From the NCBI GenBank assembly GCA_000004985.1, contig GG738878.1: a stretch of DNA of 64,000 bases; one strand, given 5' to 3'. The DNA is from Naegleria gruberi. Lineage: Eukaryota. The notes under the pieces were generated by a model, which did not search any database, was not told where the DNA came from, and worked only from the letters and a program-made list of their open reading frames with translations. Position 1 is the stretch's first letter. Each line of letters begins with the position of its first letter. Below, piece after piece: positions 42,081 to 61,767 of this stretch. Made by a program: the position numbers and the translations under genes.

Positions 42081-42484
42081 TTTTGCATTTTTTTTAAAAA
42101 TAAAAATTAAAAATAAATTAGATTCTACAAGTAAGTGATCTCAATCGGTGAGCATTGTAATTTTTGAACACGTATTGTAGTCTAATGAGAAAATCAAGAA
42201 TTTTTTTGGATGATCATTTTAGGCAATCAGGAAATGAAGAGCAAAAACATTTGCAAACCCATTTTGACTCGTTGTCACTTTTGTAATTAATTTTGAAGCT
42301 TCTTTAAACGATGCAATACTACTTGGAAAGCATTTTCCTTCTTTTGCCAAACCCCAACAAATCAACTTGCATCAATTACAGGCGGTATTATATTTCATAG
42401 AGATTCTTATCAAAAAAAACAAATCACATCACCACGCTTCTGCTGGAAGGATAAAGAGCACCAATTCATCAGAAGAAACACATC

Positions 42485-43534
42485 ATGTCGGATACAATCA
42501 AAACAAATCCAGACGATACTCCATTATTGAAAACATTGGAAGGAGTTGATGCTACCAATGCTAGGAAAGAGTTGACAATGGAAGAGGTACATCGGGATTG
42601 GCCACACTTCTTTGTCTATTCCTCCAAAACACCACTCCACCATGCTAAAATCAAGAGAGATTTGAAGAGTGAGCAGGAAAAATTGTGTTTTGACAAGGTA
42701 GAAGAATACGTTCTTTCTGATGCTTTCATCAAGGATGTTGAAAAGTCGTGTTCCGATTCATTTAGAACCCAACAACTTTCACAACGACCTCTAATGAGAA
42801 TTGATTTGGCCAGCATTTCCAACACAGAGCAGGAAGTAGTTGATGATCATGGTTTGATTGTAGATGTATTCAGTTTGTTGAGATTTTGCAATGCCAGAAA
42901 GTTTGACTTGAATAATACCAAAGAGTTACTTACTGAAACAATTTCGTTTAGATTAGAAAAAAAACCACATCTGATAACTAAAGAACAAGTGCAAGTGGAA
43001 ATTTCCAAAGAGAAGGGCGTATGGTGTGGTTATTCAAAGCTGAACAACCCAATTATTTACATCAGTCCACAAAATCATGTGACATATGACAGAGATTTTG
43101 ATACTACCATAAATTTTACACTCTTTATGGGAGAAGTGGGTATGAAAATGATTAGAGAGTACAATCAGAAATATGTACTACCACTATTGTCAACTCAAAG
43201 TGCAGAAGATGTCTTGGAGAAATATGTGGAACAATATGTGATAGTGTATGATGGAAGAACAATTGCTATGAAGAATTGTGATGTAGCCATTATCAAAGAA
43301 TTTTTGAGAATTTCCAATTATTATGCAGAGAGATTGAGTTCTGTTGTTGTATATAGTCCTAATTGGACCTACAAGATTATGCTCAAGATGATTTCACCAT
43401 TTGTAGATAAGAAAACATATGACAAAATCAAAGTAGCCTATGATGTTAATGAAGTGGATGATCTGTTAGAAATAGAAAATGTTCCAACTCAATTTGGTGG
43501 AAAAGCAACAGTGAAATTCAATGAAGACAGTTGA
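42485..43534 (+). CDS. Sec14-like CRAL-TRIO lipid-binding domain protein.
   Basis: CRAL-TRIO N-domain followed by the lipid-binding domain (..YVLPLLSTQSAEDVLEKYVEQYVIVYDGRTIAMKNCDVAIIKEFLRISNYYAERLSSVVVYSPNWTYKIMLKMISPFVDKKTYDKIKVAY). Confidence 0.75.
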   Translation: MSDTIKTNPDDTPLLKTLEGVDATNARKELTMEEVHRDWPHFFVYSSKTPLHHAKIKRDLKSEQEKLCFDKVEEYVLSDAFIKDVEKSCSDSFRTQQLSQRPLMRIDLASISNTEQEVVDDHGLIVDVFSLLRFCNARKFDLNNTKELLTETISFRLEKKPHLITKEQVQVEISKEKGVWCGYSKLNNPIIYISPQNHVTYDRDFDTTINFTLFMGEVGMKMIREYNQKYVLPLLSTQSAEDVLEKYVEQYVIVYDGRTIAMKNCDVAIIKEFLRISNYYAERLSSVVVYSPNWTYKIMLKMISPFVDKKTYDKIKVAYDVNEVDDLLEIENVPTQFGGKATVKFNEDS

Positions 43535-43589
43535 GCTAATAAGACATTTAACTATTGGCACCTTAGCAGTGAACTACTCAGTAGTACAG

Positions 43590-43653
43590 TAATCCCAATA
43601 ATCAATTGATTGAAACCTCTTTGTAATTTAAATCATCTTTTTGTAAATTAATT
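43590..43653. repeat. Short sequence copy related to the 3' end of the SPO11-like gene (paired with 60698-60775).
   Basis: taatcccaataatcaat..tgattga[a/g]acc.tct..ttgtaatttaaatc.tttttgtaaattaatt is shared with 60698-60775, with two gaps of 7-8 nt in this copy. This copy lies in the intergenic region 55 bp downstream of the Sec14-like gene stop. Confidence 0.6.
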
Positions 43654-43895
43654 AAACAAAACTCACCTCTTGACGCCTCTTTGCAAATCTTTCATATAAC
43701 CGAGTTGCTAATTTTGTAATTATTTAGAAGAATCTCCACCTCAAAGAACTACATTGAGCCCACAACTACTGCTTCGACTCTAGCCAAATTAACACCAACA
43801 AAAAAAAGCACCAAACAAAATGGTTTCCGACACCAATAACAACAATCAGAGTTGTGCACAACAATTGGATCGCCGACAATTTTTTCATTAAGAAT

Positions 43896-46067
43896 ATGGT
43901 AACAAATTTGAACCATTTTATATATGTGAATATGACAAGGAGTGCAGTGGTGGGAATGCTGCAAATTTTGTGTCAAATAAGCTATGGACCTACATTACCT
44001 CTGCATATATTTTCAGTTTATAAGCTTCTAATTTCTACAGTAACTTTTTATTTTAGTAGACCTCTAGCAATTGTTTCTGCATCAATATTTGTTACATTTA
44101 ATGCTGCTGCTCTTGGTATTTCATTTTGGGTGAATTATGATTCATTAACACAAATCGAAAGGGATTACTTTCCTTTTAGATTTATAGAAATGTTGGTAGT
44201 ATTATATAGCGTGTTTATTGGATCAATGCTTTTCTCAATATTCATTACAGATAAGAATAAGCAATATACAGCTCAACAAATTGAAACTACGAAGGAAAAA
44301 ATTATTAGCTCTGAAAAGACAAAATATATTGCCAATTTGAGTCATGAAGCTAGAAATCCTTTGCACGCCATTAGTGGATCTATTTCAATCCTCAAACATA
44401 ATATCCAATCTGAAGAATGTAGTAATCAATGTCCTCACTGCTATGTAACAAATGGTTCTATAGCTGAATTAGTTGAAGACCTGGAAGAAAACACAACATT
44501 ATTGGAGCATATATTCTCGTCTTCATTACAAGTTAGCTCACTTGAAATGGGAAAAGTTGAGTTAAAAGTTGAAGATACTAACATGTTATGTCTAGTTGAA
44601 TCAATTACTAGTGTTTTCTCTCAATTGGCTAAAACCAAACAACTTTCACTTCACAGTTACTTTAATGTAATTAAGGTTCCAATTTTTTTGAGAGCAGATT
44701 CTGTTAGAGTAAGCCAAGTGGTAATGAATCTTATATCTAATGCCATTAAGTACACAGATAAGGGACATATTAAATTGAATTGTGATACTCTGAGTGAAAG
44801 AGAAATTCGCAAACACTTTCCAACAAAAAGTATTGAAGAGTATGAATTTATCAAAATTGAGTGTATAGATACAGGTAAAGGAATCCCTGAAGCACAAGTT
44901 AAGGATCTTTTCAAACCATTTCATGTTGTTGAACAAGGTCAAAAATCTGTTGACAGCTATATTGCTCAAACAGAAAAAATGGCAGAATTCAAAGATATTA
45001 ATGGTGCTAGTATGTTACTCAATACTAGTCGTAGCAATGGCCTCGGATTATCTATATCAAAAATGCTTATTGATAAGATGGAGGGTGATATTATTGTTTC
45101 CAGTAGTTCGAAAGGTACTAACATGACTATCATTTTACCACTGAGAAGGGTTAAGCCAGAAGTATTGAAGGAAGAACTGGTTCAGAAGAATAACAATTAT
45201 TTAACATGTGACAAGATTTTTGAGATTTTGAATGAAGAAAATGAAAGATTGAATATTATAATTATTGATGAGGATAGATTTTTCAGACACATTATGCTCT
45301 CCTATTGGAAGATGTTTAAGAGAGCTGTTCACATTAGTGCAGAGTATAAAACAAGTATAGAATTTTGTGATTCAGAATTAGACAAGGATTTAATGCAAAA
45401 TACCACAGTTATTTTCTGCCCTGAAAAAGATATCAAACATACAGAGTCCAATTTCAAACATGAACGAGTAGTTTTGATTCCAACCATTTGTAGAGGTAGT
45501 CATAGATTATTTTCGGATCGTATCTACCTTTCCAAGCCAGTGAAATTTATAGATTTGTTGGAATTTGTCTATGAACATATTTTTGATAGAACTGCTTCCT
45601 CCACTCATAGACAAAGTGTTGTGGAAATTGAGAAAATACCAAAAATAATGAAAACCAAGTCAGTACCAGTAATTGAAGAATTCAAGAGTGAAAAAAAAGT
45701 TCTTATAGTTGATGACAATCACCTAAATCTTAAAATATTGGAAAAACTCCTTAGAATATTAGGTTTTGAAGACATTGAAGTTGCCCACGATGGTATGGAA
45801 TGCTTCAACAAGTATAAGAAGAAGAATTATGATATTATTTTATTAGATTGCATAATGCCTATTCTAAGTGGAAAAGAATCTTGTGAGCTTATCAGAAACA
45901 TGGAAAAGCAAGAACACCTAGAACATAGAATCCCAATATTAGCAATCACAGCAAATGTTTGGGAAGATAGAGAATCTCTTATATCTCAAGGTTTTGACTC
46001 TGTTATTTACAAACCTATTCAGCTGGAGAAACTACAAGCAGAAATGATGGCTTTATTGGATGATTAA
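43896..46067 (+). CDS. Hybrid sensor histidine kinase. It has an N-terminal multi-TM region, HisKA/HATPase domains and a C-terminal receiver domain.
   Basis: H-box ANLSHEARNPLHAISGSI, N-box MNLISNAIKYT, G1 box IDTGKGIPE and G2 box GLGLSISKMLIDKMEGDI. Receiver domain: VLIVDDNHLNLKIL..DIILLDCIMPILSG..YKPIQ. The first ATG in the GTG-started ORF is at 43896. Confidence 0.85.
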   Translation: MVTNLNHFIYVNMTRSAVVGMLQILCQISYGPTLPLHIFSVYKLLISTVTFYFSRPLAIVSASIFVTFNAAALGISFWVNYDSLTQIERDYFPFRFIEMLVVLYSVFIGSMLFSIFITDKNKQYTAQQIETTKEKIISSEKTKYIANLSHEARNPLHAISGSISILKHNIQSEECSNQCPHCYVTNGSIAELVEDLEENTTLLEHIFSSSLQVSSLEMGKVELKVEDTNMLCLVESITSVFSQLAKTKQLSLHSYFNVIKVPIFLRADSVRVSQVVMNLISNAIKYTDKGHIKLNCDTLSEREIRKHFPTKSIEEYEFIKIECIDTGKGIPEAQVKDLFKPFHVVEQGQKSVDSYIAQTEKMAEFKDINGASMLLNTSRSNGLGLSISKMLIDKMEGDIIVSSSSKGTNMTIILPLRRVKPEVLKEELVQKNNNYLTCDKIFEILNEENERLNIIIIDEDRFFRHIMLSYWKMFKRAVHISAEYKTSIEFCDSELDKDLMQNTTVIFCPEKDIKHTESNFKHERVVLIPTICRGSHRLFSDRIYLSKPVKFIDLLEFVYEHIFDRTASSTHRQSVVEIEKIPKIMKTKSVPVIEEFKSEKKVLIVDDNHLNLKILEKLLRILGFEDIEVAHDGMECFNKYKKKNYDIILLDCIMPILSGKESCELIRNMEKQEHLEHRIPILAITANVWEDRESLISQGFDSVIYKPIQLEKLQAEMMALLDD

Positions 46068-46126
46068 TCCAAAATAGGATATTATCAATATTTGGTCATT
46101 ATTCAAAGAGTCAAGATACTAAAAAA

Positions 46127-47439
46127 ATGCCTAAACTTGCTTTGGATTTTTCAACAACTGCCTTTGACTCATATGTGCAAGATTTCAAAAGGTACACCTC
46201 TCAATTTGTGGATTTTATGTGGAGAGTTTACGAAACTTATCCAATATTGAGTATTTCACTTGGGGCATATGGATTGTTTTTAATGTTGAAAAAGTTTGTA
46301 TTTGGAGGAAAGTATTGTCCAGAGTACTTGATAACCACCTCTGAAATGTCTGGTAAAGTAGCCATTTTGACGGGTGGTAATAGTGGATTAGGATTCAGTC
46401 TTGCACAACAATTGGCTTGTAAAGGAGTAAAAGTGATATTGGCAGTTCGAAATCCTCAAAGAGGATTAATGGCCAGGTCAAAAATTGTACACTACATTAA
46501 GAAAGAAACAAATATAGACCCACCTCTCGATTCTGTTCAGGTGTATCATTGTGATTTATCGAGCCTGGAGAGTGTAAGGGAGTTTGTAACTAGTGTACAA
46601 ATCATGCTTTCCAGTAATCCAAAAGTGAAGAAGGTAGTTAATCAAGTTGGTATAGAATTGGTCACTGAAACCCAAGAGACCTATCCAGTCATTGATTTCC
46701 TTATCAATAATGCAGGAAGTATCTATCCAACTCATAGGTAAGTTTCATTATTGGCTCATTTGCTTATGCAACACATTAAAGCGTTTCTGCAAATGGAATA
46801 GAGGCACATTTTGCTGGAAATTATTTGGGACACTATTATCTTACACAGCTCTTGTTGAAGAATGGCCTAATGAAAGACAATTGCAGAATTTTGAATATTG
46901 TGTCCTCTCCCTCTCTATTTTCTGATGAAATTTACACAAGCCATAGTTCGCTTTATGAATTTTCATTATTGGATTTATTGGAGGATGGTAAATTGAAATT
47001 TGATCCTCAACAGCTCTATATGAGAAGTAAATACGCTCTCTACCTCTTTTCAATTAAACTACAGAGAGAGTTGAATCAAAGAAACATACATGGTCACTTC
47101 ATACCAAGGCATGCACAAGTATTCAGTGTATTTCCAGGAGCAACCCAAACCTCTTCAATGGTCAAGACTTCCTCACCATTTGCAAGAATTTTTACGAAAC
47201 CTTTGGAATTACTTCTTTTGAAGAGTCCTTGGCAAGGTATTCAATCTGCCTTGTACTGCTTATTAGAACACTCAAGTAAGCTTAGGGGAGGTGAATTTTA
47301 TGCTGAGTGCAGTCACTCACCACAACCAATAACTCAATCAGATGAACAACGCATGCTTCAATTATGGAATGTCTCTCATAACTTGATTCAAAACTTTGAG
47401 AAAGCTGCTTCATCTCATGGATCACACAGCCTACCTTGA
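46127..47439 (+). CDS. Short-chain dehydrogenase/reductase (retinol-dehydrogenase/WWOX-like), membrane anchored. Two exons: 46127-46737 and 46782-47439.
   Basis: TGGNSGLGFSLAQQLACKGVKVILAVRN (TGxxxGxG Rossmann motif). NNAG is followed, across intron 46738-46781 (GTAAGT..AAG, phase 2), by SVSANGIEAHFAGNYLGHYYLTQLL..RILNIVSS and a YxxxK-type catalytic region. An N-terminal hydrophobic anchor is present. Confidence 0.8.
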
Positions 47440-47466
47440 TGAACACAATTAATATTAAGAGTATGT

Positions 47467-48783
47467 TTAATCGCTAATGTATTGCAAATAAATATCATCA
47501 CTGTCGTACTCTTCATCTTCAGATCCAGAGAGCATGGCAACTAATCCACTGGATGAGTCACTATCTTCATCTTCATCTACTATTCTTGTACCAATCACTC
47601 CTTGACAATTTGGAGCTCCACATTTACATTCTTGTTGTTTTGTTTCATCATTATAAATTAAAAAGTTGTAATTATATGTAATCTCTTCTCCTTTCACAAT
47701 GTCTTTAATGGCAAATATTCCTACACGATTCTGTCCATTAACATCCCATGTTTGAGTACGTGCATTTGGTGCACAAGAATGATTAATAAATCTAGCAATA
47801 TTCCCCATCCAAGTGGCATCAATAATTTCATTTTCATTCATATTCATGCAATAATGATGCAATGACTTTTTGTAACTTCTTTTAGTTCTAGTTTCGAACT
47901 TATCCACTGAAATTACTTCTCCTACATATTCAGTTATGAAAGTGCCCTTTTTGATGACATCTTGATTGCATTTCACACCAATCCCCTTTGTATCAGATTG
48001 GAAACAAATTAATTCTGGGTAGGCCATTTTTGTGAAAACTCTATTTTGACAATTGTCTCCACAATTACAATCTGTTGGACATTCAATTTGTGATAAATAA
48101 TTAATACAATATTTTGGAATGCATCCATTCGTGCAATGACAATGATCTTGATGCTTTTTGTCTGATTGCTTGGTGGTTTTTCGTTCATTTGACATGATGT
48201 AAACAAAATCATCAGGTAACTTGATTTTTGGAAAGTACTTGGTGATGATAGCTTGCTTTGCAAGATTTGATGAATCCACTGTAAGCTTCAATTTTTTGCA
48301 TACTTTAGCAAATGGGCTTTTTTCACGTCGTTTTCTTACTGATTTTTCCTCCTTCTTTGGTTTTTGATTTTCCACCTGTTCTTTTGTCAACTGAAAGTCT
48401 GTCAATCTTTTACCATAAAAATCCTTCCTATGAGGTCTATACGTTCCTCCAAGATGGTCAAAAGCAACAAAAGTCTTCTTTAAATGAAAACGATGAATAG
48501 AAGTTAGTACCTCCTCTGGAAATGGACCATCCTCAAGTGTTCTATATTTACTAATTGTATTATCCAGATCAAAATTTGTTTGCACAGTATCTTGATAAGG
48601 TATCACATTCGGAGTAAATGGTTTTCTTTTTCTTCTGCAATTACTTTCCGTCGGAAAGGCAATTTCCGTGTGTGATCGTTTCCCAGTCTTTGAATTTTTA
48701 AAACTATCACATCGCACCTCGAAACCATCTTCTTCGTTATCACTTGCAAATCGAAGCAATTCGATATAACGAGAGTGAGACAT
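47467..48783 (-). CDS. SET-domain histone-lysine N-methyltransferase (AWS-SET-postSET arrangement, SET2/ASH1-like).
   Basis: The AWS Cys cluster is CHCTNGCIPKYCINYLSQIECPTDCNCGDNCQNR. The SET core contains GIGVKCNQDVIKKGTFITEYVGEVI and NHSCAPNARTQTWDVNGQNRVGIFAIKDIVKGEEITYNY. The post-SET is ECKCGAPNCQGVIG. Stop codons of this gene and the convergent SDR gene are 28 bp apart. Confidence 0.85.
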   Translation of the reverse strand: MSHSRYIELLRFASDNEEDGFEVRCDSFKNSKTGKRSHTEIAFPTESNCRRKRKPFTPNVIPYQDTVQTNFDLDNTISKYRTLEDGPFPEEVLTSIHRFHLKKTFVAFDHLGGTYRPHRKDFYGKRLTDFQLTKEQVENQKPKKEEKSVRKRREKSPFAKVCKKLKLTVDSSNLAKQAIITKYFPKIKLPDDFVYIMSNERKTTKQSDKKHQDHCHCTNGCIPKYCINYLSQIECPTDCNCGDNCQNRVFTKMAYPELICFQSDTKGIGVKCNQDVIKKGTFITEYVGEVISVDKFETRTKRSYKKSLHHYCMNMNENEIIDATWMGNIARFINHSCAPNARTQTWDVNGQNRVGIFAIKDIVKGEEITYNYNFLIYNDETKQQECKCGAPNCQGVIGTRIVDEDEDSDSSSGLVAMLSGSEDEEYDSDDIYLQYISD

Positions 48784-48863
48784 TTTTTTAAAATAATTTT
48801 TATAAAAATTTGCGCCAAAATTTATAACAATTTTATTATTTTTATTTAAATTCTAAGAAGAAA

Positions 48864-50253
48864 TTAAAGAATGTGATTGATTGAGAATTTTTCACGAGGA
48901 ACAGAACAAACTTCGAATGAGGAATCAATAGAGACTTCCTTTTTCATCAATTCATTCAACATTTCACCAACGACAATGCCAAATTTGAAGCCATGACCCG
49001 AACCACCCAAGAAGGTTGAAATATTCTTCTTACCACTCTTTGTTGGAATGTAATCAATGACAAAATCTTCAGTTGGTGTCATTTCATACATGCAGGTAAC
49101 GACACGATCCTTTTCATTGATTAATTCTTCATAACTTTCGTCCAATTTAACAAGTCCTTCTGGAATAACCTTCTTGAGATAGGTTTGCATGGCTTGGAGC
49201 TTTTCCTTTTCAACTGGACGTTCTTGATTTGAATCAATTTGTTGAGCTCTTTCGTCTGGATCAAAACCTCTTTCCAAATCTCCAAATACCTTGTGAGTGG
49301 CAGATTTGATATAACCCTTCTTTTCCCATTCTGGGAAACCATAGTAAGCAAGATCTAATGGTCTATCAGAGAATGGATCTAATCCCCAAGCAATCCAAAT
49401 TGGCTATTTTACAATAATATTAAGATTCAAATTGAAATTATATAGAGATACTTACTGAATTTGCAGCAGTGAGAACATTTTCTTGGACTGCCTTTTCAGT
49501 GAGCTTCCAATAAACATAACACATTCTCAATACTTCAAATTTAATGTCCAAATCAAAGTGTTGTTTAAGGAATTTCTTTGAATAGGCACCAACACAAATG
49601 GACAATTTTCTAGTTTGGAATCTCTTTCCACTTGAAGTTACAACAGTGATAATATCATCCTCTCCTTCAATAATACTTTCAACTCTTTCCTTTTCAACAA
49701 TTGAATGTTTTTCATGATCGTAATCACTCAACAAGACAGTTCTAATCTTGTTTGGATTCAAAATACCAGCTTCTGGTGAATACACGGCAAGGGTATCATC
49801 AGGAAGTCCAGTAAATTGTGGGAATTTTTGTCTCAATTGTGCACCAATTAAAACTTCATGTTCAATTCCTCTTTCTTTAGAAACTTTAGCAACCTTATTG
49901 ACATTTTCATCATCCAATTGACCAATATCCAATCCACCAGTTTTCACAAAGAAATTTTCAAAATCTTTAACAGAAGGCCACATTTCCAAAGCCTTTGTAG
50001 CCATCAATGAATAATGATAATCATCATAGGCAACTCTATAATTTAATAAATATTCGGAATATTGAACTATTAACACAAACCTAATAATTCTTGATTCACC
50101 ATGTGATGATCCCTTCGAATGCATCAATTCAAATTGTTCCAACAATAAAACTCTCCCGAAACTTGCACCATCACGTGTAGCCTGATGAAAGAGAGAAGCT
50201 CCGGCAATGCCCGAACCAACAATCAACAAATCATAAATTAAATCTTGTTGCAT
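48864..50253 (-). CDS. FAD-dependent sarcosine oxidase/L-pipecolate oxidase (MSOX/PIPOX family). Three exons on the minus strand: 50253-50081, 50035-49456 and 49403-48864.
   Basis: N-terminal dinucleotide-binding YDLLIVGSGIAGASL. Introns 50036-50080 (GTTTGT..AG) and 49404-49455 (GTAAGT..AG) keep the frame. The C-terminus GGSGHGFKFGIVVGEMLNELM is typical of MSOX-type enzymes. Confidence 0.8.
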
Positions 50254-50484
50254 TTTTTTTGTTGTTTTTAACAGTTTTCTGATCTTTCGACTTCGGAGAT
50301 GTGTTGAAACCCTATGGATAACAAATTGAAGAAACATTCCAACCGTTGATCAGTCATCTGTAGCAGCATACAGAGCTTGCATGTTGTCTGAAATGTGCAA
50401 AAGAAAGCACTAGTTTGCAGGGTAATGTGTGAAGAAAATTGAAAGAAGAATTTGTGAATTGAGAGATGTTATGTGATTAATTGT

Positions 50485-51506
50485 TTACTTTTTGAGTTTT
50501 GCCTTGAATTTTTCACCCATTAAGGATCCAATAACTTCTGCCATTGGTTCCAGTTCAGATCCAGAAATTAAATCAAACTCGAATGTAAAGTACATGAACT
50601 AATATTGAATGAATGATTCAGTAATGCATAATATTGAGAATTACTTACATGCTTGAAAGCAGTGTTTAAGTGGGCTGTATAATTATGGAAATTAATTGAA
50701 AATTTGTAAATTGAAAAAATTATTGTGAATTCTTCTTACCTTCTTCTCCAAGAATTTTAATTTGTTCCAAGTGATGAGCATAAATGTGAGCATAGACACG
50801 GAATAATCTCTTGAAAATATTTTTAATTATTTTTCCAAAATCCTAAATTTGGAAAAATTATTCAAAAATTGATCAAAATTCGCCAAAAAATCAAAAGATT
50901 AGTTGAATATAATTATGAATATTAATAGAGGAAATGAAAATAAAAACAAACCTTTGGAAAATCTTGACTCGCATCAGTTGGAAATACATTTTCATCATTT
51001 AACAAACTTTCAACCCATTCCATTAACAAGGTAACATAATCCTTTGCACAAACTGCTGTTGGTTTATCATATTTTGGATCATCTAATACATTATTTTGAT
51101 CAGTCTCCTCTAAAAAATTATATTAGAAACATACCTGGATTCATCCACAAGTATTCGAAATTTTCACCACTTGTCATTTTAGGACAAGTACTTGGTGTAC
51201 AGTATTCTTCAAGAGAACCATAAAGAATATTAATTCCATTTACAAAATCTACAACGTGAACAGCCAACCATTCATTCTTCTTTTCACCAGCTATTAAAAA
51301 AATATATTCGAAACATTTTTAAATTATTAGAAACACATACGTGGTAATTTTACAGTATTTTCCAAACCGGCAATACCCAAAGATGAAGTTGATTTCTGCA
51401 TAGCATTCTTCATCCTTTCATTCAATTGTTTGTCACAATCGATATTCTTTTTAAAAGTCTTTTTTTTATCAGAAACTCCCATCAATCCTTTTAATACACT
51501 GGCCAT
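50485..51506 (-). CDS. MOB kinase activator family protein, closest to MOB4/phocein. It has six short exons on the minus strand and is absent from the supplied ORF track because no exon exceeds 60 codons.
   Basis: Hand-spliced product: MASVLKGLMGVSDKKKTFKK.. / ..GEKKNEWLAVHVVDFVNGINILYGSLEEYCTPSTCPKMTSGENFEYLWMNP / ..KYDKPTAVCAKDYVTLLMEWVESLLNDENVFPTDASQDFPK / DFGKIIKNIFKRLFRVYAHIYAHHLEQIKILGEE / HLNTAFKH / FMYFTFEFDLISGSELEPMAEVIGSLMGEKFKAKLKK. All introns have GT(A/T)(A/T)GT donors and AG acceptors. The strongly conserved MOB core motifs are present (VDFxNxINxLYG, CPxMSxGxxxEY, LFRVYAHIYxHH). Confidence 0.75.
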
Positions 51507-51823
51507 TGTTATTTGTTGTTGTTGTTGTGTTTGATTGGAAGAATATATAATACAAAGGAGGAGATTGTTTTTTTTTTAATTTGATTTTTGTTTGACAAGT
51601 GGAAAATGATGAAGAATGATTTTTTCCGATCACTGACATGTCATGAACAAAAGTGGAATTTGGTTGACTTCTTAAAGTTTGATTATTAAGGAAAGAAGGC
51701 AACAAAAAAACTTTAAAAATTTGAAATATTTTTTTGTAATTGTTTTTAAATACTATTAAATATATTTAAATATGTTTAATAGTCTATTTTATATACAATT
51801 TTAAATTTGCACTTTAAAAAAAA

Positions 51824-54323
51824 ATGGAACAATCAAATTTTGATGCAGGTGGAGGAAGTGAATTAATTTCCATCCAAGAATTAATCAAGAAAATTCAAAG
51901 CCTTCATTCTCACTTTAATGATGATCATGAATTGCATCATCCATTCCGAAGTATTTATTTGTATGGATCGTCGGTTTATGAAAATAAGGCTTGCAAATTG
52001 GTTCATAATATTAGAGATGATGATGATGATAGTGAAGGCTATTTAATGATTAGGGAGGGAGTTGTGGTTGGTGATTTGGATATCTTGTTGGTGAGGGATG
52101 GATTTCATCATTCTGGATTGAAAGATTTGATTCATGAGGAGGATAGGGATGAAAAGGATGTTTTCTTTGAGCAGGATATTACGTTGCATTTCAAGTTGAA
52201 AGGATCTAAGGGAAATTGGTATGATATTGAGACGCATATTATGTCAACGAGTATATTTATGGAGACAATTAGACAACATAAGGGAATTACATGTCAATAT
52301 GTGTTTATGGATAGGAATGAGTTTGTGATTTATGAGGATGAATTGATGGGATGGTTTAGATGTTTTTGGTTTAGGAATTTTCATTTTCACAGGAGATTGT
52401 TTAGGAGAATGATTGTGAGAGAGGCTGATGTGTGGTGCTACTCGAAAGCAAGAAGATTAATAACCATTGAGAAAGATTATGAAAAGGGAAAGAAGAACCT
52501 CATTCACGGTATTAGATATTTTAGATTGAGTAATCAAATTTTGGAAAATTTAACAATTAATGATTACACAGTTACCAATGATTTGAAGAAACAAGTACTT
52601 TCTCAAAATTCAACAGATTGGAAATATTGGGAAGAAATGTTTGAGCCAATGTATTTATCGGAAAGAGATGAGTTCAATAAGAAAGTAGACTTACATATTC
52701 AGGGTGGCCTCAAAGTTGCATCAGAGTATTCTGAGAAGGTGGGTGTATCGACACTTTGTAATATAATTGAAGATCATGGATTACAATATCTTTCTTTGAA
52801 TTTTAGCACTGACATTATTCCACTTGCTATTTTCGATCAAAATGGTGAAGAATTGGATCTTGTAAAATATCTTACATGTGAAAGTTTAATTAGAGTGTTG
52901 CTAATGGGTGTAAAGTTGAACTCTGAAGATTACAGACATCATATATTGAAACAATTATCAAATCTAGAATCTGACATACGAGGATACTCTATTCTCTTCA
53001 AAATAACTCAACTGGAAGAGATGGAAAGAATTGATGAAACAATCCCTAGAAAACCATTGAGAGAAACTAATGGTATCGTGATGTCTGCTACAGTGACTGA
53101 TTCGTTAGAAATTACTTACAAACCAGTGGCTGTTCCTTTACCAAAAGTTTATGATGAATTCAGGTGGTTGAATACTAGCACCAAAAACAAGACTCAATCG
53201 AGTCAACTATCTTTATTAGAAGTGGATGAGATAACATCAATATCAAAAAATTATAGAGGTGATACCTACATTCTTTATAATTACTGTGGAAAATGGAGAT
53301 GGTCTCACCCAAATGAAGATCTTCAATACTTTACAAAACTATCCAATGTAAGACATAGTTCAGGTAATGAAAAGGAGCAGTTTTGCAGCTTGTTATCTCC
53401 TGGAGCTAATTTTGAAGAACTGAATGCCAGACTTGATAACCATACAAATAAGAATTTCATATTTGTCAAACCAATATCAGAAAATTATTTATCATTAATT
53501 GCTGTTCGAGACCTTACAAACAATACTATTTTAGATTTGGAACCATTCTCAAATTTACTATTTGATTGCAAATACATTCAAAAAGAAAATATTGGAATGT
53601 TAAAGAAAAAGGCCTTGGAAATGAGTTCAGATTTGCTTTACAAACTTCCTTACAAATGCTCATCTCAACATGAGAAGGATATTGTCACATTATTGAAATA
53701 CCTTTACTATCTTTCTAATTCGTTGGGTTTTTGCTATGATGGATTTAATATTAATCTAAAGTTAAAATCTGGTAGGTGAATATTCAGTGAAATGCCAATC
53801 TCAATTTTATTTTAATATCAGCCAATTAACTGTATGGCATACCTCCATTAATATTGACGATGTTACTGAGGACGGAAAATTCAACAAATTTCATGGCAAC
53901 ATTCTTAGCCAGAGTAATGAACTTCTATTGATTGAAATGGCTCTGGTGTGGTTGGAATATTCTTGGGATGAACAAGTTTTTGAAATTGAAAGAAAAAGCA
54001 ACCCAAAGACGGTTCCATTTTCGGATATCTATTTTACTATCAAACAGGATTGGAAATGTATTTGCAAACTTTACGATGATTTTTGTGAATCTTTAAAAGA
54101 ACAGATAAGTTCAAGTTCAATAGATTCCAAAGATGTCACCAAGTTCATTGCTCAAAATTGCACTGAATTTGCTCTAGAAAATAAGACAATTATTTATAAG
54201 GTAGCGGAGGCAAACTTTGAAATAAGAGCTATTGAAGTGTTCAATAGTCCCAAGAGATCTATTGATGCAAATAGTCTTGTTAAAATATGGAAAGATTACA
54301 AGAAGAAGTATCCTTCAAATTAG
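51824..54323 (+). CDS. Hypothetical large protein encoded by two adjacent ORFs (51824-53779 and 53787-54323) in different frames. The GTAGGT..AG stretch that could join them is only 16 nt, so the junction is unresolved (frameshift, sequencing error, or two genes).
   Basis: No confidently recognisable domain. The N-terminal region has a possible Pol-beta-type nucleotidyltransferase signature (IYLYGSS ... VVVGDLDILLVRDG, i.e. hG[GS] followed by a [DE]h[DE]h strand), but the spacing is atypical. This assignment is speculative. Confidence 0.35.
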
Positions 54324-54359
54324 GAATAATAACATATGTGATATTTTGGAATTAGAGAT

Positions 54360-57022
54360 TTATTTTTCAGTTAGTGCTAAAGCATAATCCTCACTACAAT
54401 TCTTTTCAGCCATACTCTTCAAGTATTGAGCTCTTCTCTTCAACTCGGCAATATATTTAATGGAGGAATAATCAATAGCGAGTTCTTCTGGTTTGTAAGT
54501 TTCTTTCCATTGTGCATTGAGTCTGTAAATTTCCTCAATTTCTTCAACGGCAGTGTCATACTTTTTATCAAAGAGAGCATCTCTTATTCTCAATAACCTA
54601 TCACTCACCACCTTCTGTGAGGATGTAATATCTTCAATTTCACCGTCGACAGTGTAAACTTCAGTTGGTTTGGATTTACCTTTTAGTCTGACTGAATCGA
54701 CATACATGCAAATAAACTTATTCTTCACAATCTCATAAGTATTGTTGCCGATAAGAATTGGTGTATCATATCTCTTGTTTAACATTTCTAATCTACCAGC
54801 AGTGTTAACAGTGTCACCAATAGCTGTGAAACTGAATCTATCCTTTGATCCAATATTTCCCATCATACAATTACCAGTATTGACACCAACTCTAATCTTG
54901 ACAATTGGAAGATTTTCCTTAATACATTTCGATTTCAATTGGTCAATCTTGTACAAACAAAGAACTGCAGCCCTTGTTCCCTTATAGGCATGGTCTTGTA
55001 CAACTCTTAATGGATTTGAAAACAGACTCATGGTACCATCCCCAATGAATTTATCAATAATACCATCATGTGCCTCAACTGTCTCAGTAATAATATTGAA
55101 ATACTCTGTCAGAATTTTAAGCAAAACAGACAAGCTTGAAGATTCTGAAAACGAAGTAAAATCTGCAATATCAGTAAACATAACAGTTGAATTCGCATTG
55201 GCCATTCCCAACTTGGAAGCATTACCTGTTCTTACAATATCCCTGACAATATCTTTTGGAATATATTTCATAAAACTGTGCAAACCATTCTTCACTGTCT
55301 TGATTGAGGTCTGTAATAGATCGAGTTCATACATGGTCTTAAGGACCTTGGATGGCTTCACTGTATCAACTTCAAGTTTAGAAATCTTGTACATATCTCT
55401 GGAAACTTTCCATATTGATCTTGTAATGAATTGAGTAACAACTATCATTAATAAGGTACCCAGAATAATAAGTATAATAGATACTGATAATAGAGCGGGT
55501 GAACTTGTGAAAATGGTCTTGACGAACCCATAGTCCTCTGTAACAATCACCACAATCCAATCAAGCCCATTATCGGTAATTTGGTGGATAGTAATCTTGC
55601 TGTTACCCACCATGAACATTGAAAAATCTGCATTTGGGTCTAAGCTTTCCTTAATTGTGCTCGTTGGGATAGTAGTAGCAGTTCCCCACATGGACTTTGG
55701 AAGATGGTACAGTATCTTTCGATCTTCCAGCACTGTACAAACCTCTGAGAATACTTCAGTTGTGTTCGAGATGTGATTTCTCACATTGGACGGGTCTTTT
55801 GTTTGCGCATTGAATGAAGAAGATATAATCAAGCCGTGTCTCTCAACAATCAAAACCTTAATAGATATTGTTTGCATATCCTTATTGGCCTCAATAACAT
55901 TAACAAGCGAACTATCAATATTGTACAAATCAAAGTGAGCACCAACAATTTGAGTAACATTTCTTGTCTCGACAGTTCCATTAGGATAGACATAATCCTG
56001 AGTATTAATAAAATCCAACGTTGTGGAAGCTCCCAGTGATGTAGCTCCAATGAATGCGTTGAAAAACACAGGTGACCACATGTAATCTGGATATGTCTTA
56101 GAAAGACCTGCCTTAAACCATGGTCTAATGGTTGGATCGTAGTTTTTGCTGGCCTGCTTTAACATGATTGGTTCATAAAAATCATCTCTCGAATAAATAC
56201 CAACAGTAGCATTATCATCTCTGATTTGAATGGTATCTCGCGTTACACTCTTTTCAATGGCACAATAATTCTTAATACTGTTGCCGTAGTAAAAGATTGA
56301 TGAACTAGGGAAGCTACTCTTGGAAGGTCCAAAGACAGATCTTATCCTCCTGCAAGTGTCATCATAACTATTGGTCAATTTGAAATTTAGTTTGTGGTCC
56401 TGGATCAATATGCCATTTCTCATCGTTTCCAGGATTGTTGGTGCTACATTGATAAAATCCTTGATTTTAGTCACGATATTCTTCTCTCTGATTGTTGTTA
56501 TATTATTAACGGATTGTTCTCCGCTTGAGTAGAACAATAATATTAAGGAACCTATGATGAATAATTATTAACATATATATTATTAAAAACTGTTAACTTA
56601 CCAATGCAAATAGCTGTTTGAAGGAGAAAGACAACGAGAAGAATATTTTGGAGAGTGTGTGGGGCTGGACAACATTCTTTGAAAAACCTTTTCATCTTGC
56701 CTTTCTTTCCCTCAGAGTACCCAAATAAATCATCAAATGTTGAACTTATCGTTGAAATTCCATCTGATTGAAGGCTTAGTGAGGCATGGGATGAAGAATT
56801 TTCTGTATTGGATTGGAAATAGTTTGTTGGTGGGTGTTCATTTGGTTCGCTTGCTGTTGTTGAGGTAATATAGGTATTCGATCTAGAGTTAAAATCACTT
56901 GAAAAGTCTAAACTCCCAGATGATGGATAAATCTTATTATCAAAATAATAAGATGCAGAATTAGATCTGTGTGATCTTGTTTTTGATATCTGCTGATGAA
57001 GAGGTGTTACTTGGGTAACCAT
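54360..57022 (-). CDS. Sensor adenylyl cyclase of the dictyostelid ACG type. Domain order is N-terminal cytosolic tail, signal-anchor, extracellular CHASE-like sensor domain, single TM, then class III cyclase catalytic domain. Two exons on the minus strand: 57022-56602 and 56551-54360.
   Basis: Intron 56552-56601 (GTAAGT..AG, phase 1) joins ..LQTAICIG to SLILLFYSSGEQSV... A hydrophobic anchor follows MKRFFKECC. The extracellular region contains RPWF. A TM helix (LLSVSIILIILGTLLMIVVTQFI) follows. The cyclase core is FTDIADFTSFSE..FIGDGTMSLF..IRVGVNTGNCMMGNIGS..FTAIGDTVNTAGRLE. Confidence 0.8.
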
Positions 57023-57859
57023 TATACAATTATACAGAGAGAGTGAAAATGTACGAGGAGGGTTGTTGGATTGAGTAAGGGTCTGTTTAGTTGTTGTGAA
57101 TTTTTGTTTTGCTGTTGTTGTGTAGAAGAGGCCGAAGAACAGCTGTGCTGTGGGCTCTATTGTTCAGTGCCTGCTTTGATTATCGATATGGGTTGTGCCA
57201 AACGAAGGAGGAGTTCTCCTAAAAAGATATGGAAGGACAATTAAGGTCGTTGAAGTTATTGGTGTTGGTATGGGAAATTAAGATTCCCAACAGGAGAGTG
57301 GAGGAAGCTGTTTGTGAAATGGATCCTTGTAATTTTTAGCGCTATCATGTAATGTAAACTTCTGTTAAAAATCGTTGAGTGTTGGTTGAGGGAACTCTTT
57401 CAAAATAAGAGCTTGCATTTACAAATAGGATAGGAGAATCTCTCATGCTACGCTTATTATTACAGCCATTTAAGGATGGCCAACCTACTTGATTTGAATT
57501 GGGCCTTAATAAGACGACCACTAGGTTACTAAATTATTATTTTCTAACTGCTGTGGAGTGGGTGAATGTTAAATATAGTGGTAATTTTTACCACCTTGTT
57601 TGGATGAGATCTGTGCAAGAATCTATTGAATATTAATGGGTAGGTCATGGACAGGTTGGTTGCACTGCTATAAGTGTCAATTGTAATTGAAATATGTTTT
57701 ACAATTCTATTCATATAGTAATTGTTTGAGCCAATTATATGTTCAAGTAAGCTTCAGTATCTTGTAACAAGTTGAATAATCGTAAATGTTGTTGATCACT
57801 TCTCAAATAGTCCATTTCATTTATTCCACACTTATCTATTGTATGAGAATCACTGTCAC

Positions 57860-60610
57860 TTAATCATCAATGCAAATAATCTCTGGTGCATCCGTTTTTG
57901 ACTTTTTGTTTGGTGGTTCAATTGAAGATGAGGGAGCAACTTCTAGTTGAAGTGTCGAATTATTATCTGTTGACTCTTCAGGTGGGGTTCTTCTCTTTTT
58001 CAATAAAGATTCCAGTTTAGTTTTAGCTGCATTGTTAAGTTCGGTTGCCTGTTTCACAAGTCTCTCAGAGATCACAAGTTTTGTTAAAATAATTGATTTC
58101 TGAACTCTTTGTTTCTGTATTTCCCTAATTGGAGCAACCATCGATTCAATGTGTGAAAGTTCCTTAACTAGGCCAGTGATTGAACAAGTTCTCTCTGTTT
58201 CTGACCATAAAAATTGTTTTAGAATCTTACAGTCACTACAAATACATGAAATACTAGATTTCACAGAAAAATTTGGTAGGGGAATAATGAACTTCTTTGT
58301 TCTAATTCCATCATCAATTAAATCAATGCTCCAGTTCAGTAGGATATCTAACTGGTCAGATTTAGGCATAATATTCGAAACAACCTCAATGAGTGGAGCG
58401 ACTAGGGTGCTATAATTCTCTTCTGATGCAACACTAAGAACAACGCGGCATGCTCTAGTAATAAAATCATTCCATGAATGGTTATGGAGCATTCGAATGA
58501 AGGAAGTTGCGAATTTCAAATCAAGGAAACAATCTCGATGGTCATATAACATCCATTCTATCAATAATTCACTCAGAGGTTTACAACTCATTGTTGATAA
58601 CACCATATTCAAACAATTTTCACTTGTCAACCATTTAGAGAATGAAAAACGTAGATTTTTCAATTTTTCAACCCCAATTTGATTTGCAATTTTGATTATC
58701 AATGGAAGGTCCAGCTCTTTGTTTTCATAAGAACCTCTTCCTCTTTGATTTGGAATAGAGTTTTTAGCCAATTCTTTTACAATCAATTTCTCATAGATTG
58801 AGGTGTCCTTCAATAAGTCTATCAACTTTGTAATACTTTCCTTATAACTGGCATACTTATAATAATCTTCCACAATATTTTCTACTACTGTTGAATGCAT
58901 TGAATATGTACATTTTTGTGCAAGTATTATTAATTTTTCAAAGCAGCTGCTATCGTATAAATGGTCATACTTATTGACAGAATACTTTGGCATTGTCATT
59001 TGTATCAACGGCACGTCATTGATTTCAATTAGAGAGCCAATAAATTCCTTCATATATCGTTTTTTACATAAATTTTCGCTAATAGTTTCTCTAAACGGTT
59101 CAATTGTAAAATGAGAAATAAGAGAAGATAAACTTTTTTGGTCTATTCCGATAACCAGTTTTGCCAATTCGACATCATTGAGCTGAATAATAGATTGAAT
59201 TACAACTTTTTCTTCATCACCCCATAAGTAGATGTTTTTCTTGGCCAGCATCTGCTTTACAAATGCAATAGAATTCTCTCTAGAGTTTGACTCTATGAAT
59301 GAAGGTAATATTTTGCTACAAAATGAAAATCCAAACTTGAGGCAAATTCTTTGTTGGCACTTCTTTGGATAAATCATTAGACATGCATTTCTGTATTGCT
59401 TTTCTTTTGTTGACCCCTCATTTCCAGTATTTTCGTTAATGGACTTGTGGAATAGTTTCATGGAAGACAGAGCAGACTTGCAAACAACACTTCTGAAAGG
59501 AACGTCTATTTTACGTTGTTGGGATCCAAAAATATACTCGAGTGATACTTCTGGATCGTCAAAACCTTCCACCTTCCTCTCCATAATTCCTAAATCTAAA
59601 ACAAGGTCTTGATATTCCTCAGCATACCTTTCCAGAATATCGTAAATATTGTAATCAGAACCTTTAAGATTTTCAGGATCCAAACTCTTTTGAGAATATT
59701 GGTGCTGAAATACATACATTCTGTAGAGAGTGTCAACATCTTTTGCATCAGCATTCCACTCAGAAACTATTTGTTGAAGTCTTTTGGCTAATTCTTCATA
59801 ACCTTTAAGTGTTGGCTTACTTTCTTTGTTACCTGAAAAACAAAGGTTATATATCAAACAAACTCTGTAACCAGAATTTACATTCTTAATCATGTGCTCA
59901 CAATCTGCATAAAAAGAAATAAAGTGAGGAGTATATCTAGAAACAGATGCAAAATCATATTCTTCCTCTTCCTCTCCGTGTCTAACTATTATTTCACCTC
60001 CACTATATTCCGAAGGAAGTTGAACAACTAGTGTTCCAAACATTCGTTCTTCCTTTTCCGAATCTTTGTGAAATTGAAAGTGACCTCCCTCTTCATATAC
60101 TAATAGCTTGTATAAATTAGCTGAGAGTCTGAGATGTTTACTAATTCCCAAGCCATCCCTAATTTCATTATCCACTAAACCGTCAATCAAATCATCCCAA
60201 GTTGGATTTGTAATTTCAAATCTTGATGGATCTAATTGCCATGTTTTTCTAACATTTTCATCGTAAATTGTATCCTCTCCTCTTCCATATGGTGCCTTAC
60301 TGCAAAATTGAATTAGCTCTGAAGCACTCCCATTCGACAATGGAAATCCAATTGTTTTAAATTGTTCATTATCCAACTTGAGTTGCAAACCTGGTAAACC
60401 AAAATCGCTGTCCAATGCACCACACTGCGTAAATTTACTTCCTCCCTTGTTTTGAGCATCCAAAATAAATTCTTGTAAATTGTCTGATGTTTTAATGGTA
60501 TCAGCATGAAGTTGAACACAATCATCATAAAAATCGGAACCGTAAGCTTCACAATAGTCACTGTCTGTTTCCGATGATTCTGATGAGGAAGAAACTCTCC
60601 TTCTGGTCAT
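57860..60610 (-). CDS. Large protein with an N-terminal 2OG-Fe(II) oxygenase (prolyl-4-hydroxylase-like, PF13640-type) domain and a 600-aa alpha-helical C-terminal region of unknown function.
   Basis: HxD...H iron triad and flanking strands: LYKLLVYEEGGHFQFHKDSEK..FGTLVVQLPSEYSGGEIIVRHGEE. The remainder has no recognisable motif. The start codon is only 47 bp downstream of the SPO11-like stop. Confidence 0.5.
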   Translation of the reverse strand: MTRRRVSSSSESSETDSDYCEAYGSDFYDDCVQLHADTIKTSDNLQEFILDAQNKGGSKFTQCGALDSDFGLPGLQLKLDNEQFKTIGFPLSNGSASELIQFCSKAPYGRGEDTIYDENVRKTWQLDPSRFEITNPTWDDLIDGLVDNEIRDGLGISKHLRLSANLYKLLVYEEGGHFQFHKDSEKEERMFGTLVVQLPSEYSGGEIIVRHGEEEEEYDFASVSRYTPHFISFYADCEHMIKNVNSGYRVCLIYNLCFSGNKESKPTLKGYEELAKRLQQIVSEWNADAKDVDTLYRMYVFQHQYSQKSLDPENLKGSDYNIYDILERYAEEYQDLVLDLGIMERKVEGFDDPEVSLEYIFGSQQRKIDVPFRSVVCKSALSSMKLFHKSINENTGNEGSTKEKQYRNACLMIYPKKCQQRICLKFGFSFCSKILPSFIESNSRENSIAFVKQMLAKKNIYLWGDEEKVVIQSIIQLNDVELAKLVIGIDQKSLSSLISHFTIEPFRETISENLCKKRYMKEFIGSLIEINDVPLIQMTMPKYSVNKYDHLYDSSCFEKLIILAQKCTYSMHSTVVENIVEDYYKYASYKESITKLIDLLKDTSIYEKLIVKELAKNSIPNQRGRGSYENKELDLPLIIKIANQIGVEKLKNLRFSFSKWLTSENCLNMVLSTMSCKPLSELLIEWMLYDHRDCFLDLKFATSFIRMLHNHSWNDFITRACRVVLSVASEENYSTLVAPLIEVVSNIMPKSDQLDILLNWSIDLIDDGIRTKKFIIPLPNFSVKSSISCICSDCKILKQFLWSETERTCSITGLVKELSHIESMVAPIREIQKQRVQKSIILTKLVISERLVKQATELNNAAKTKLESLLKKRRTPPEESTDNNSTLQLEVAPSSSIEPPNKKSKTDAPEIICIDD

Positions 60611-60657
60611 TTGTGAAATTTTTTAGTTTCAAATTAATAAAAAATTGGCGGTAATAT

Positions 60658-61767
60658 TCACAACACGTTTAAATGTAGTTCTACCTTTGCTGTGATATAA
60701 TCCCAATAATCAATCTCCAAATGATTGAGACCCTCTATTTCGACTTTGTAATTTAAATCTTTTTGTAAATTAATTTGAGTTTTTACAGTGTCATCCAATT
60801 CAAGTTGGGTGTTGTTTAGAGAGTTTATCTTTTTCAAATCCAATTCTTCCAGAGGCATCCAACAATCCTTCCACTTTGAAATCAATTGAGGAGCATTGTC
60901 AAAATCATTCAAATGAACTCCAATCCATGACATTCTGGAACAAGTTTGAAGCACCCAATAATGCCAATCTTCGGTGGAGTCTACACAACTATGGATGGTC
61001 AGATTCTCCTTCTCATTTTCAAATGATAACGAACCATTCATGTAAACATTGGCAATTTCAGCTCCATAAGGATCACCATCTGTGAGTGTGAAAATATTCA
61101 AACTTCTCCTTTGATATTTTGCTACTTGCTTTGTTAGTGTTACAATAAAATCTCTTGTTGGAACATCAGGATATCCCTTAGATGTGATTATTAATGATGT
61201 ATCTTTGAGACTGCTTGCTTGACTTTTCAACACTTGAAAAACTGACTCTTTTTCAACAATGATCACCTTATCTACTTCAACAGGGATAGAGAACTCTACA
61301 ATTTGTAAATGAGGAATCGAAGGAAGATTACACCCTTTAGAAGCACTGACTATAGTTGTTGTTGGTTGTTGTCCTCTATTTTCAATATCAATCAATGAGA
61401 TTTCCTTCCAAGCAATTGGTCCACAAACTTCTCCCTTCGATTGAGGAACAATATGAAGATCATGCCTATTAACTCGCCAACTTGATGATAAATCCTTCAA
61501 TATGGAATCTAGTTGTGTCTGATCTTTTAGAATAGGCTTGTTACAATAATACAAATCTCTCTTGGTTGAAAATTTGTTTAAAGTACACAACTGATACACT
61601 AAATTCATCACCTGAAACTTGGAAATAAATGTTGATGGATATTTGGTCAGATCTTTCAGCAAGAAGCCTTTTTCATTCGGAATATCAGATGATGGTGATG
61701 AAACTAATTCCCTCACAAAGGCTAAAACTTTCTCCTCAATTCTTTCTCTCACTTGAATTGTTTCCAT
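60658..61767 (-). CDS. SPO11: SPO11/topoisomerase VI subunit A homolog (meiotic DNA double-strand-break transesterase family). Single 369-aa ORF.
   Basis: All family motifs are in the correct order and spacing: catalytic 5Y-CAP tyrosine TKRDLYYCN; Toprim glutamate IIVEKESVFQ; SKGYPDVPTRDF; DxD metal site LTDGDPYGAEIANVY; and a C-terminal KVEIEGL motif. No introns are needed. Confidence 0.8.
   Translation of the reverse strand: METIQVRERIEEKVLAFVRELVSSPSSDIPNEKGFLLKDLTKYPSTFISKFQVMNLVYQLCTLNKFSTKRDLYYCNKPILKDQTQLDSILKDLSSSWRVNRHDLHIVPQSKGEVCGPIAWKEISLIDIENRGQQPTTTIVSASKGCNLPSIPHLQIVEFSIPVEVDKVIIVEKESVFQVLKSQASSLKDTSLIITSKGYPDVPTRDFIVTLTKQVAKYQRRSLNIFTLTDGDPYGAEIANVYMNGSLSFENEKENLTIHSCVDSTEDWHYWVLQTCSRMSWIGVHLNDFDNAPQLISKWKDCWMPLEELDLKKINSLNNTQLELDDTVKTQINLQKDLNYKVEIEGLNHLEIDYWDYITAKVELHLNVL
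60698..60775. repeat. Copy of a short repeat that overlaps the 3' coding end of the SPO11-like gene (paired with 43590-43653).
   Basis: See the paired feature. The reverse complement of this copy encodes the C-terminal ..TQINLQKDLNYKVEIEGLNHLEIDYWD.. of the SPO11-like protein. Confidence 0.6.

Follow-up and report, generated by a model that had tools for sequence, protein, structure and literature searches.

Why should a short, degraded copy of the 3' coding end of a SPO11-like gene lie in the spacer between two other genes, about 17 kb away from the gene itself? The question was raised by an initial annotation of a 64,000-nucleotide stretch of the Naegleria gruberi contig GG738878.1 (GenBank assembly GCA_000004985.1; 33% G+C), referred to here as the window. 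A fragmentary segmental duplication, the pseudogene of a second SPO11 copy and a short dispersed element recruited as the C-terminus of the protein had been put forward as possible origins. The repeat, its two flanks and the gene order around SPO11 in related organisms were analysed.

A repeated segment with two copies in the window

When positions 43590-43653 were compared with positions 60698-60775 by gapped local alignment, the proposed match was confirmed, with both copies on the same strand. Four exact blocks are common to the two copies, of 17 nt (TAATCCCAATAATCAAT), 7 nt (TGATTGA), 16 nt (CTTTGTAATTTAAATC) and 19 nt (ATCTTTTTGTAAATTAATT), and the TGATTGA block together with the following ACC is identical at 10 of 11 positions. 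The alignment score of the pair was 41, compared to 10.3 +/- 1.8 in shuffled sequences, and none of 2000 shuffles scored as high. A blastn search of the region against the 64-kb window gave E=3e-7. In a comparison of the whole window with itself, the pair was the best match (E=3e-8) and the only dispersed, non-palindromic repeat with E<0.01, the other two matches being local AT-rich palindromes. The segment is thus present in two copies in the window, with no further dispersed repeat.

The short copy differs from the long one by one substitution and four indels, instead of the two gaps of 7-8 nt originally described. With respect to SPO11, it carries deletions of 7 nt and 10 nt (or 1+9), a tandem insertion of ATC (3 nt) and the single substitution GAG>GAA. 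Three of its four indels are of the slippage type, and the fourth is a 1-nt deletion of C. Microhomologies of 2-3 nt were found at the 7-nt deletion (AAT) and at the 9-nt deletion (CT).

The coding copy is ancestral

The long copy is part of an intact single-exon ORF of 369 amino acids on the minus strand (60658-61767), with orthologues in N. lovaniensis, N. fowleri and Willaertia. The Pfam domains TP6A_N (PF04406; 2.2e-13, 50.2 bits, cut-off 26) and TOP6A-Spo11_Toprim (PF21180; 2.1e-28, 99.9 bits, cut-off 24.1) were both detected in it. In an alignment with heterolobosean SPO11 proteins, residues R70, D71 and Y74 of its KRDLYY motif were invariant, and we take Y74 to be the SPO11 catalytic tyrosine. 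By both domains and the tyrosine motif, the ORF is classed as a putative SPO11/topoisomerase VI subunit A gene. Among 5.8 billion proteins, no N. gruberi match was found for this ORF, although the neighbouring Sec14-like and histidine kinase proteins had matches at 100%; therefore, the SPO11 ORF appears to have been left out of the deposited N. gruberi gene set.

The source of the repeat within the live gene (60698-60775, minus strand) encodes residues I332-D356 (INLQKDLNYKVEIEGLNHLEIDYWD). These 25 residues do belong to the C-terminal region, as had been proposed, without being the last of the protein, as 13 further codons (YITAKVELHLNVL) come after D356 and before the stop codon at 60658-60660. 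The C-terminus was aligned with those of five other heterolobosean SPO11 proteins, from N. lovaniensis, N. fowleri, Willaertia magna and two metagenomic relatives. No gaps were required, and K341, E343, I344, E345, L347 and Y354 were invariant across the six sequences, the first five of these being the residues of the KxEIExL motif. As this peptide is conserved without gaps across the relatives, the SPO11 coding copy is ancestral and the copy at 43.6 kb is derived from it. The GAG>GAA substitution is also derived in the short copy, because GAG is common to SPO11 and to its orthologue in the metagenome contig described below.

The short copy is a non-coding relic beside a Sec14-like gene

The short copy was correctly placed by the initial annotation between a Sec14-like gene and a histidine kinase gene. 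The former (NAEGRDRAFT_80299; 42485-43534, plus strand) encodes a CRAL/TRIO protein, as identified by Pfam, that is 100% identical to N. gruberi XP_002675327. The latter (NAEGRDRAFT_50273; 43854-46067, plus strand) is a hybrid histidine kinase ORF identical to XP_002675328. As both accessions are consecutive, there is no annotated gene between the two. Rfam and tRNA scans gave no match at either copy of the repeat; the single RNA gene detected in the window was a tRNA-Asn (GTT) at 24967-25041, on the plus strand.

The core of the relic (43590-43653, minus strand) begins 55-56 nt past the stop codon of the Sec14-like gene and corresponds to SPO11 codons 332-356, degraded and out of frame; it is unique in the window apart from its source. 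On the minus strand it reads INLQKDDLNYKEVSIN followed by a stop in one frame and SIDYWDYCTTE followed by a stop in another. The pieces of the SPO11 peptide are consequently divided between two frames, and every minus-strand frame contains a stop, which bears out the description of this copy as frameless and non-coding.

Homology beyond the 64 bp was found on one side at most. To the right, the comparison of 43654-43820 with 60776-61000 was not significant (p=0.18). To the left, an extension is probable: the stretch 43541-43572 (minus strand) matches the last ~35 nt of the SPO11 coding sequence (60661-60695) at 24 of 32 positions, with p=0.013 against shuffled sequences and p=0.019 against genomic 55-mers, and reads FTAKV where SPO11 reads ITAKV. 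This similarity to the SPO11 tail (~75% identity) is suggestive of a diverged left extension of the relic. If the homology is real, the relic would cover the last ~115 nt of SPO11 completely, up to ~6 nt from the Sec14 stop codon. A match of the left flank in inverted orientation was not significant (p=0.47). The 17 nt between the extension and the core (43573-43589; ACTACTCAGTAGTACAG) represent a net insertion of 15 nt with respect to SPO11 and contain a hairpin-like ACTAC-TCA-GTAGT core; they may be repair filler.

Divergence along the relic is uneven, with 1 substitution in the 61 nt of the core (~98% identity) and 8 in the 32 nt of the left part. Uniform decay after a single event cannot have produced both. 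Three options are considered for this mismatch: a later re-copying of the core, a constraint on the core, or a left similarity due to chance.

SPO11 and the Sec14-like gene are adjacent in a relative

The closest relative found is represented by a metagenome contig of 2,815 bp (ENA ERZ27254845:k141_1808068; L001/L002, with coordinates as L002 unless indicated). Both the best match to SPO11 (P0001, 69%) and the best non-self match to the Sec14-like protein (P0008, 68%) are encoded on this contig. The two orthologues show 68-69% amino acid and 72-73% nucleotide identity to those of N. gruberi, and the genes are convergent and immediately adjacent. The Sec14-like block (737-1629, corresponding to window positions 42602-43503; 73% nucleotide identity) and the SPO11 block (1700-2670, corresponding to 60682-61646; 72%) are separated by 70 nt in the contig and by 17,178 nt in N. 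gruberi. A metagenome scan with the SPO11 alignment yielded only distant homologues, with identities of <=31%, and no closer Naegleria.

The correspondence between both genomes continues beyond the Sec14-like gene. An ungapped translated HSP (947-1732, corresponding to window positions 42821-43606) runs from the interior of this gene through the first 17 nt of the relic, and the SPO11-derived sequence starts 55 nt past the Sec14 stop codon in both cases (TAGTCCCAATACTCAAT in L002 and TAATCCCAATAATCAAT in the window). As the relic shares its register, gene and orientation with the L002 junction, it is not a randomly placed duplicate. Moreover, the relic resembles the SPO11 of N. gruberi far more than it does that of L002; therefore, it left the live gene well after the N. 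gruberi and L002 lineages had split.

The SPO11 frame of the contig lacks a stop after the conserved YIQAK (1520-1716, or 1100-1296 in L001) and continues for 141 nt over the coding sequence of the Sec14-like gene, antisense to it. The overlap of frames is either a true convergent overlap or the result of a short unrecognised intron or a sequencing error.

Gene order around SPO11 was also compared in other Naegleria. A gene for a ubiquitin-conjugating enzyme (UBC; 61821-62186, minus strand; Pfam UQ_con) is the conserved 5'-side neighbour of SPO11, and this adjacency is kept in N. gruberi, N. lovaniensis and N. fowleri. The 3' neighbour is TauE, followed by ArsB, in N. lovaniensis and N. fowleri; a gene of 345 amino acids, followed by TauE and ArsB, on contig L005; the Sec14-like gene in L002; and a 2OG-Fe(II) oxygenase gene, 47 nt away, in N. 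gruberi. With UBC kept on the 5' side and the 3' neighbour varying by species, the change was therefore on the 3' side of SPO11. A Sec14-like gene beside SPO11 was not found in N. lovaniensis, N. fowleri or L005. The orthologue of N. lovaniensis is on the same contig as SPO11, 64 kb away, and the 345-aa gene of L005, whose size would fit, is not Sec14-like. The L002 organism is nearer to N. gruberi (~69% identity) than N. lovaniensis is (49-53%). In a published grouping, N. clarki and two species from the River Leam fall together with N. gruberi, and N. fowleri and N. lovaniensis form a separate pair (PMC12482156).

At a larger scale, SPO11, UBC, SET and short-chain dehydrogenase genes are grouped in N. 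gruberi (46127-48783 and 61821-62186), N. lovaniensis and N. fowleri (L003, L005 and L006 were compared), and SPO11 and SET are neighbours on L005 as well. Order and orientation vary within this neighbourhood, which is conserved but internally shuffled. The histidine kinase belongs to a multigene family, and the context of its best N. lovaniensis homologue shares no neighbours with the window.

The relic as a probable scar of the former SPO11 3' junction

We consider it probable that the relic is the scar of the former 3' junction of SPO11 with the Sec14-like gene, left behind after a rearrangement, and we infer that the two genes once ended facing each other. The ancestral arrangement in the N. 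gruberi lineage would have had the Sec14-like gene on the plus strand and SPO11 on the minus strand, tail to tail, with stop codons a few to ~15 nt apart, and the 3' end of each gene would have run into the other. This pairing would have arisen on the common lineage of N. gruberi and the L002 organism. Subsequently, a rearrangement on the N. gruberi branch would have placed ~17 kb, from the histidine kinase to the 2OG oxygenase gene, between both partners, either by insertion or transposition of the 17-kb block or, equally, by transposition of a small Sec14 unit. The break would have fallen within the last ~80-115 nt of SPO11, and the piece would have been retained on both sides, through a staggered break filled in at both ends or through duplicative repair. 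The copy joined to the SPO11 body would have stayed under coding selection, leaving the gene whole, whereas the copy on the Sec14 side would have lost its frame by slippage-type indels and become non-coding spacer, possibly Sec14 3' UTR or poly(A) region.

As expected of a breakpoint duplication, the copies at 43590 and 60698 bracket a block that L002 lacks between its Sec14-like gene and SPO11. By its ORFs and Pfam domains, this ~17.0-kb block (43654-60657) contains the histidine kinase, SDR (adh_short), SET and DAO genes, a 651-aa ORF, an adenylate/guanylate cyclase gene and the 2OG-Fe(II) oxygenase gene. The unrearranged L002 has one SPO11 3' end with contiguous flanks, and N. gruberi has one intact copy, within the 369-aa ORF, and one degenerate, frame-broken copy. 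An inversion predicts inverted copies, and here both are on the same strand; therefore, the event cannot have been a simple inversion and must have involved an insertion or transposition, or else there was more than one event. The left extension, if real, would fit the prediction of a tail-to-tail ancestor, since it brings the relic to within ~6 nt of the Sec14 stop. The fragmentary duplication or relic first proposed is hence right in kind and was incomplete, the site being the position that the SPO11 3' end has in L002.

Several observations weigh against this explanation. Its polarity rests on one short metagenome contig, while N. lovaniensis, N. fowleri and L005 are without the Sec14-SPO11 adjacency. 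The uneven divergence of core and left part is unlike that expected of a single event followed by uniform decay, and the direct orientation of the copies makes the classical staggered-break inversion model inapplicable as such. In addition, no counterpart remnant, from the 3' end of the Sec14-like gene, was detected below the SPO11 stop codon, where the similarity was not significant (p=0.64 in the local test; genomic control 0.10).

A direct similarity of ~130 nt (~68% identity) between 42250-42375 and 43680-43814 flanks the unit formed by the Sec14-like gene and the relic. Its score of 25.5 was the best of 124 non-ORF pieces (runner-up, 23.0), although half of the match is a generic promoter/leader pattern and the whole is not clearly above a promoter-like background. 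It could have arisen as a target-site duplication when a Sec14 unit was transposed or, instead, reflect shared promoter features.

Other origins of the relic

Because one event and uniform decay do not account for the two tiers of divergence (~98% identity at the aligned sites of the core, 75% in the left part), a two-step origin was also considered, in which an old, diverged positional relic had its core later re-copied from the live SPO11 gene 17 kb away by homology-guided, error-prone break repair (ectopic gene conversion, SDSA or microhomology-mediated template switching). Besides the two tiers, of the four differences in the ITAKV codons that can be polarised, three are changes on the relic side, and the core has four indels, three of them slippage-type, for a single substitution. 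Both edges of the core would also fit such a repair, with the 17-nt hairpin-like insertion exactly at the left one and, at the right one, 8 nt that repeat the following SPO11 bases in inverted orientation (AAAACTCA vs TGAGTTTT) beside the palindrome AATTAATT. However, the left-part homology is marginal (p ~0.015), the junction features are anecdotal and none of them is individually significant, and a recipient of 75% identity is a poor substrate for homologous repair. We regard this two-step origin as a tentative possibility that would refine the main explanation, not replace it. A full second SPO11 gene, produced by segmental duplication and then almost wholly deleted beside the Sec14-like gene, is in turn unlikely. 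Several SPO11 paralogues have been reported in Naegleria (PMC9928731), and the relic does occupy the ancestral position, as if an old copy had decayed there after a new one arose. Against this, the pseudogene option finds no evidence in the flanks: homology does not go past the 3' terminal ~115 nt (p=0.18 on the right flank, with nothing further by blastn), the next ORF has its first in-frame ATG (43896) only ~240 nt past the relic, and the live gene retains its UBC neighbour and hence would have to be the old copy on its 5' side. The near-identical core also argues against the long decay needed to erase ~1 kb.

The remaining candidates fail on more direct grounds. Recruitment of a dispersed element as the SPO11 C-terminus, which the initial annotation had thought the less likely of its options, is rejected by the gap-free alignment of the orthologues with its six invariant residues and by the count of two copies in the window. 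For the 64 kb covered, a dispersed repeat or miniature transposable element was likewise discarded, as no terminal inverted repeats are visible and SPO11 has no insertion with respect to its orthologues. For a processed pseudogene or retrocopy of the SPO11 mRNA, a minus-strand A-run in 43535-43589 and flanking short direct repeats were sought and not found, and such an origin is not needed, because the position of the relic is explained by synteny with L002. A chance similarity of AT-rich sequences, or a common short dispersed repeat, has hardly any probability left. With 33% G+C, a single 17-mer match is by our estimate near the chance expectation for 64 kb, but the four blocks are collinear (E=3e-8), the window contains no other match of this kind, and both position and register coincide with the orthologous L002 junction. 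Within the window, the chance reading is effectively refuted.

A possible present-day role

The only AWTAAA hexamer within 43535-43820, a candidate polyadenylation signal of the Sec14-like transcript, is an ATTAAA at 43651-43656 (plus strand). The relic ends within this hexamer on the right and contains a TGTA 7 nt upstream of it. In N. gruberi, poly(A) sites have been described with AAUAAA or AUUAAA plus an upstream UGUA element, with a median 3' UTR of 39 nt (PMC11529991). The relic could accordingly be within the Sec14 3' UTR and help to form its poly(A) site. RNA from the plus strand of the relic is complementary to the SPO11 mRNA, with a predicted duplex energy of -77 kcal/mol, compared to -34 +/- 5 in shuffled sequences.

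From these features, the relic might be functional, being retained either as a trans-antisense to the SPO11 mRNA, after a former cis-antisense overlap, or as the Sec14 poly(A) signal; on the sequence evidence, we consider such a retention quite improbable. The predicted duplex, with perfect runs of 19, 17 and 16 nt, would speak for it, as would the appearance of the sole AWUAAA hexamer of the spacer at the right edge of the relic, with its UGUA upstream, and a core with far fewer substitutions than the adjoining part. Nevertheless, complementarity is an automatic result of common descent, and frame-breaking indels indicate that there is no length constraint. Furthermore, the relic lies 56 nt past the stop, beyond the 39-nt median 3' UTR (PMC11529991), and an AAUAAG comes right after the stop; therefore, the Sec14 mRNA may end before the relic. 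The most specific version, in which the Sec14-like transcript would carry ~64 nt of antisense damping SPO11 in vegetative amoebae, and the segment would be kept near-identical by selection or re-copying, is more improbable still. If true, a trans-antisense role would account for a core nearly free of substitutions beside diverged flanks. The remnant as a possible antisense partner of a meiosis gene would also be the only route from this locus to a wider interest; to our knowledge, a sexual cycle has never been observed in N. gruberi.

Other features of the window

For the histidine kinase, the deposited model of 613 amino acids starts at 44226. Its N-terminus is probably truncated, because the reading frame is already open from 43854 and has an ATG at 43896, and 99% of the 737-aa ORF is aligned with the N. 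lovaniensis homologue. An upstream ORF of 23 codons starts at 43821, ahead of this gene.

The motif GAGCCCACA is found three times in the window, with 0.2 expected: at 43756-43764 (plus strand), 57149-57157 (minus strand) and 24255-24263 (minus strand). Two of the copies precede an ORF start by ~130-140 nt (43896, the histidine kinase ATG, and 57022, for the cyclase), with an A/C-rich leader after them, and the motif is a candidate promoter element.

Spacers between genes on the same strand are short around SPO11, with 47 nt from the SPO11 stop to the 2OG-Fe(II) oxygenase ATG (60611-60657) and 53 nt from the UBC stop to the SPO11 ATG (61768-61820). Therefore, the promoter of the downstream gene must sit within the coding end of the upstream gene. 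Between the DAO gene and the 651-aa ORF there is a stretch without ORFs of 80 amino acids or more, in which two AT-rich near-palindromes were located (50819-50869 and 51738-51800; 81-82% self-complementary). The same stretch also seems to contain a small, unlisted gene with several exons, whose ATG would be near 51507 on the minus strand.

Comparison with known systems

In Drosophila, inversions generated by staggered breaks duplicate gene fragments of 46 bp to 1.9 kb, and the copy at one end gathers point mutations and indels (Ranz et al. 2007, PMC1885836; also PMC4965816). As in those breakpoint duplications, a fragment of a single-copy gene is found here at both ends of a rearranged segment, one functional and one decaying; its size is within the range of 46 bp-1.9 kb, and the outgroup, in this case L002, is unduplicated and contiguous. 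The N. gruberi copies differ in being direct, which does not correspond to a simple inversion, in belonging to a heterolobosean amoeba and in being at the short end of the size range. Moreover, their mechanism is inferred, not reconstructed from both breakpoints.

In yeasts, gene relics are the short remains of decayed genes between present-day genes, at sites where a gene used to lie. The N. gruberi relic resembles them as a non-coding remnant in a spacer, recognised by its likeness to a live gene, that acts as a gene-order fossil; unlike them, its parent survives 17 kb away, its core is nearly identical to the parent and only the terminal ~64-115 nt are represented. Mutagenic ectopic gene conversion, templated insertions and microhomology-mediated template switching are also known to leave marks at repaired breaks. 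The short patch from a nearby template, the deletions with 2-3-nt microhomology, the tandem triplet and the hairpin-like filler at the edge are all reminiscent of such repair, although in N. gruberi the pattern could also come from ordinary decay in AT-rich DNA.

A further likeness is with convergent overlapping genes and cis-natural antisense pairs, as the SPO11 and Sec14-like frames of L002 are convergent and either overlap or abut. The relic implies the same convergent ancestral layout for N. gruberi, where, unlike in cis-natural antisense pairs, both genes are now separated and a 64-nt putative antisense remnant stays beside the Sec14-like gene. Overall, the feature is best filed with breakpoint-associated gene-fragment duplications or with gene relics.

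The relic has no evident bearing on the function of SPO11. It would illustrate a constraint on compact genomes: with spacers as short as 47-55 nt, the splitting of abutting convergent genes would survive only if their shared end is duplicated. It is a known kind of feature, in a new example from a group whose gene-order evolution has been little studied, and it would serve as a polarised marker of a gene-order change in Naegleria, by which SPO11 and the Sec14-like gene, once tail to tail, were probably parted fairly recently.
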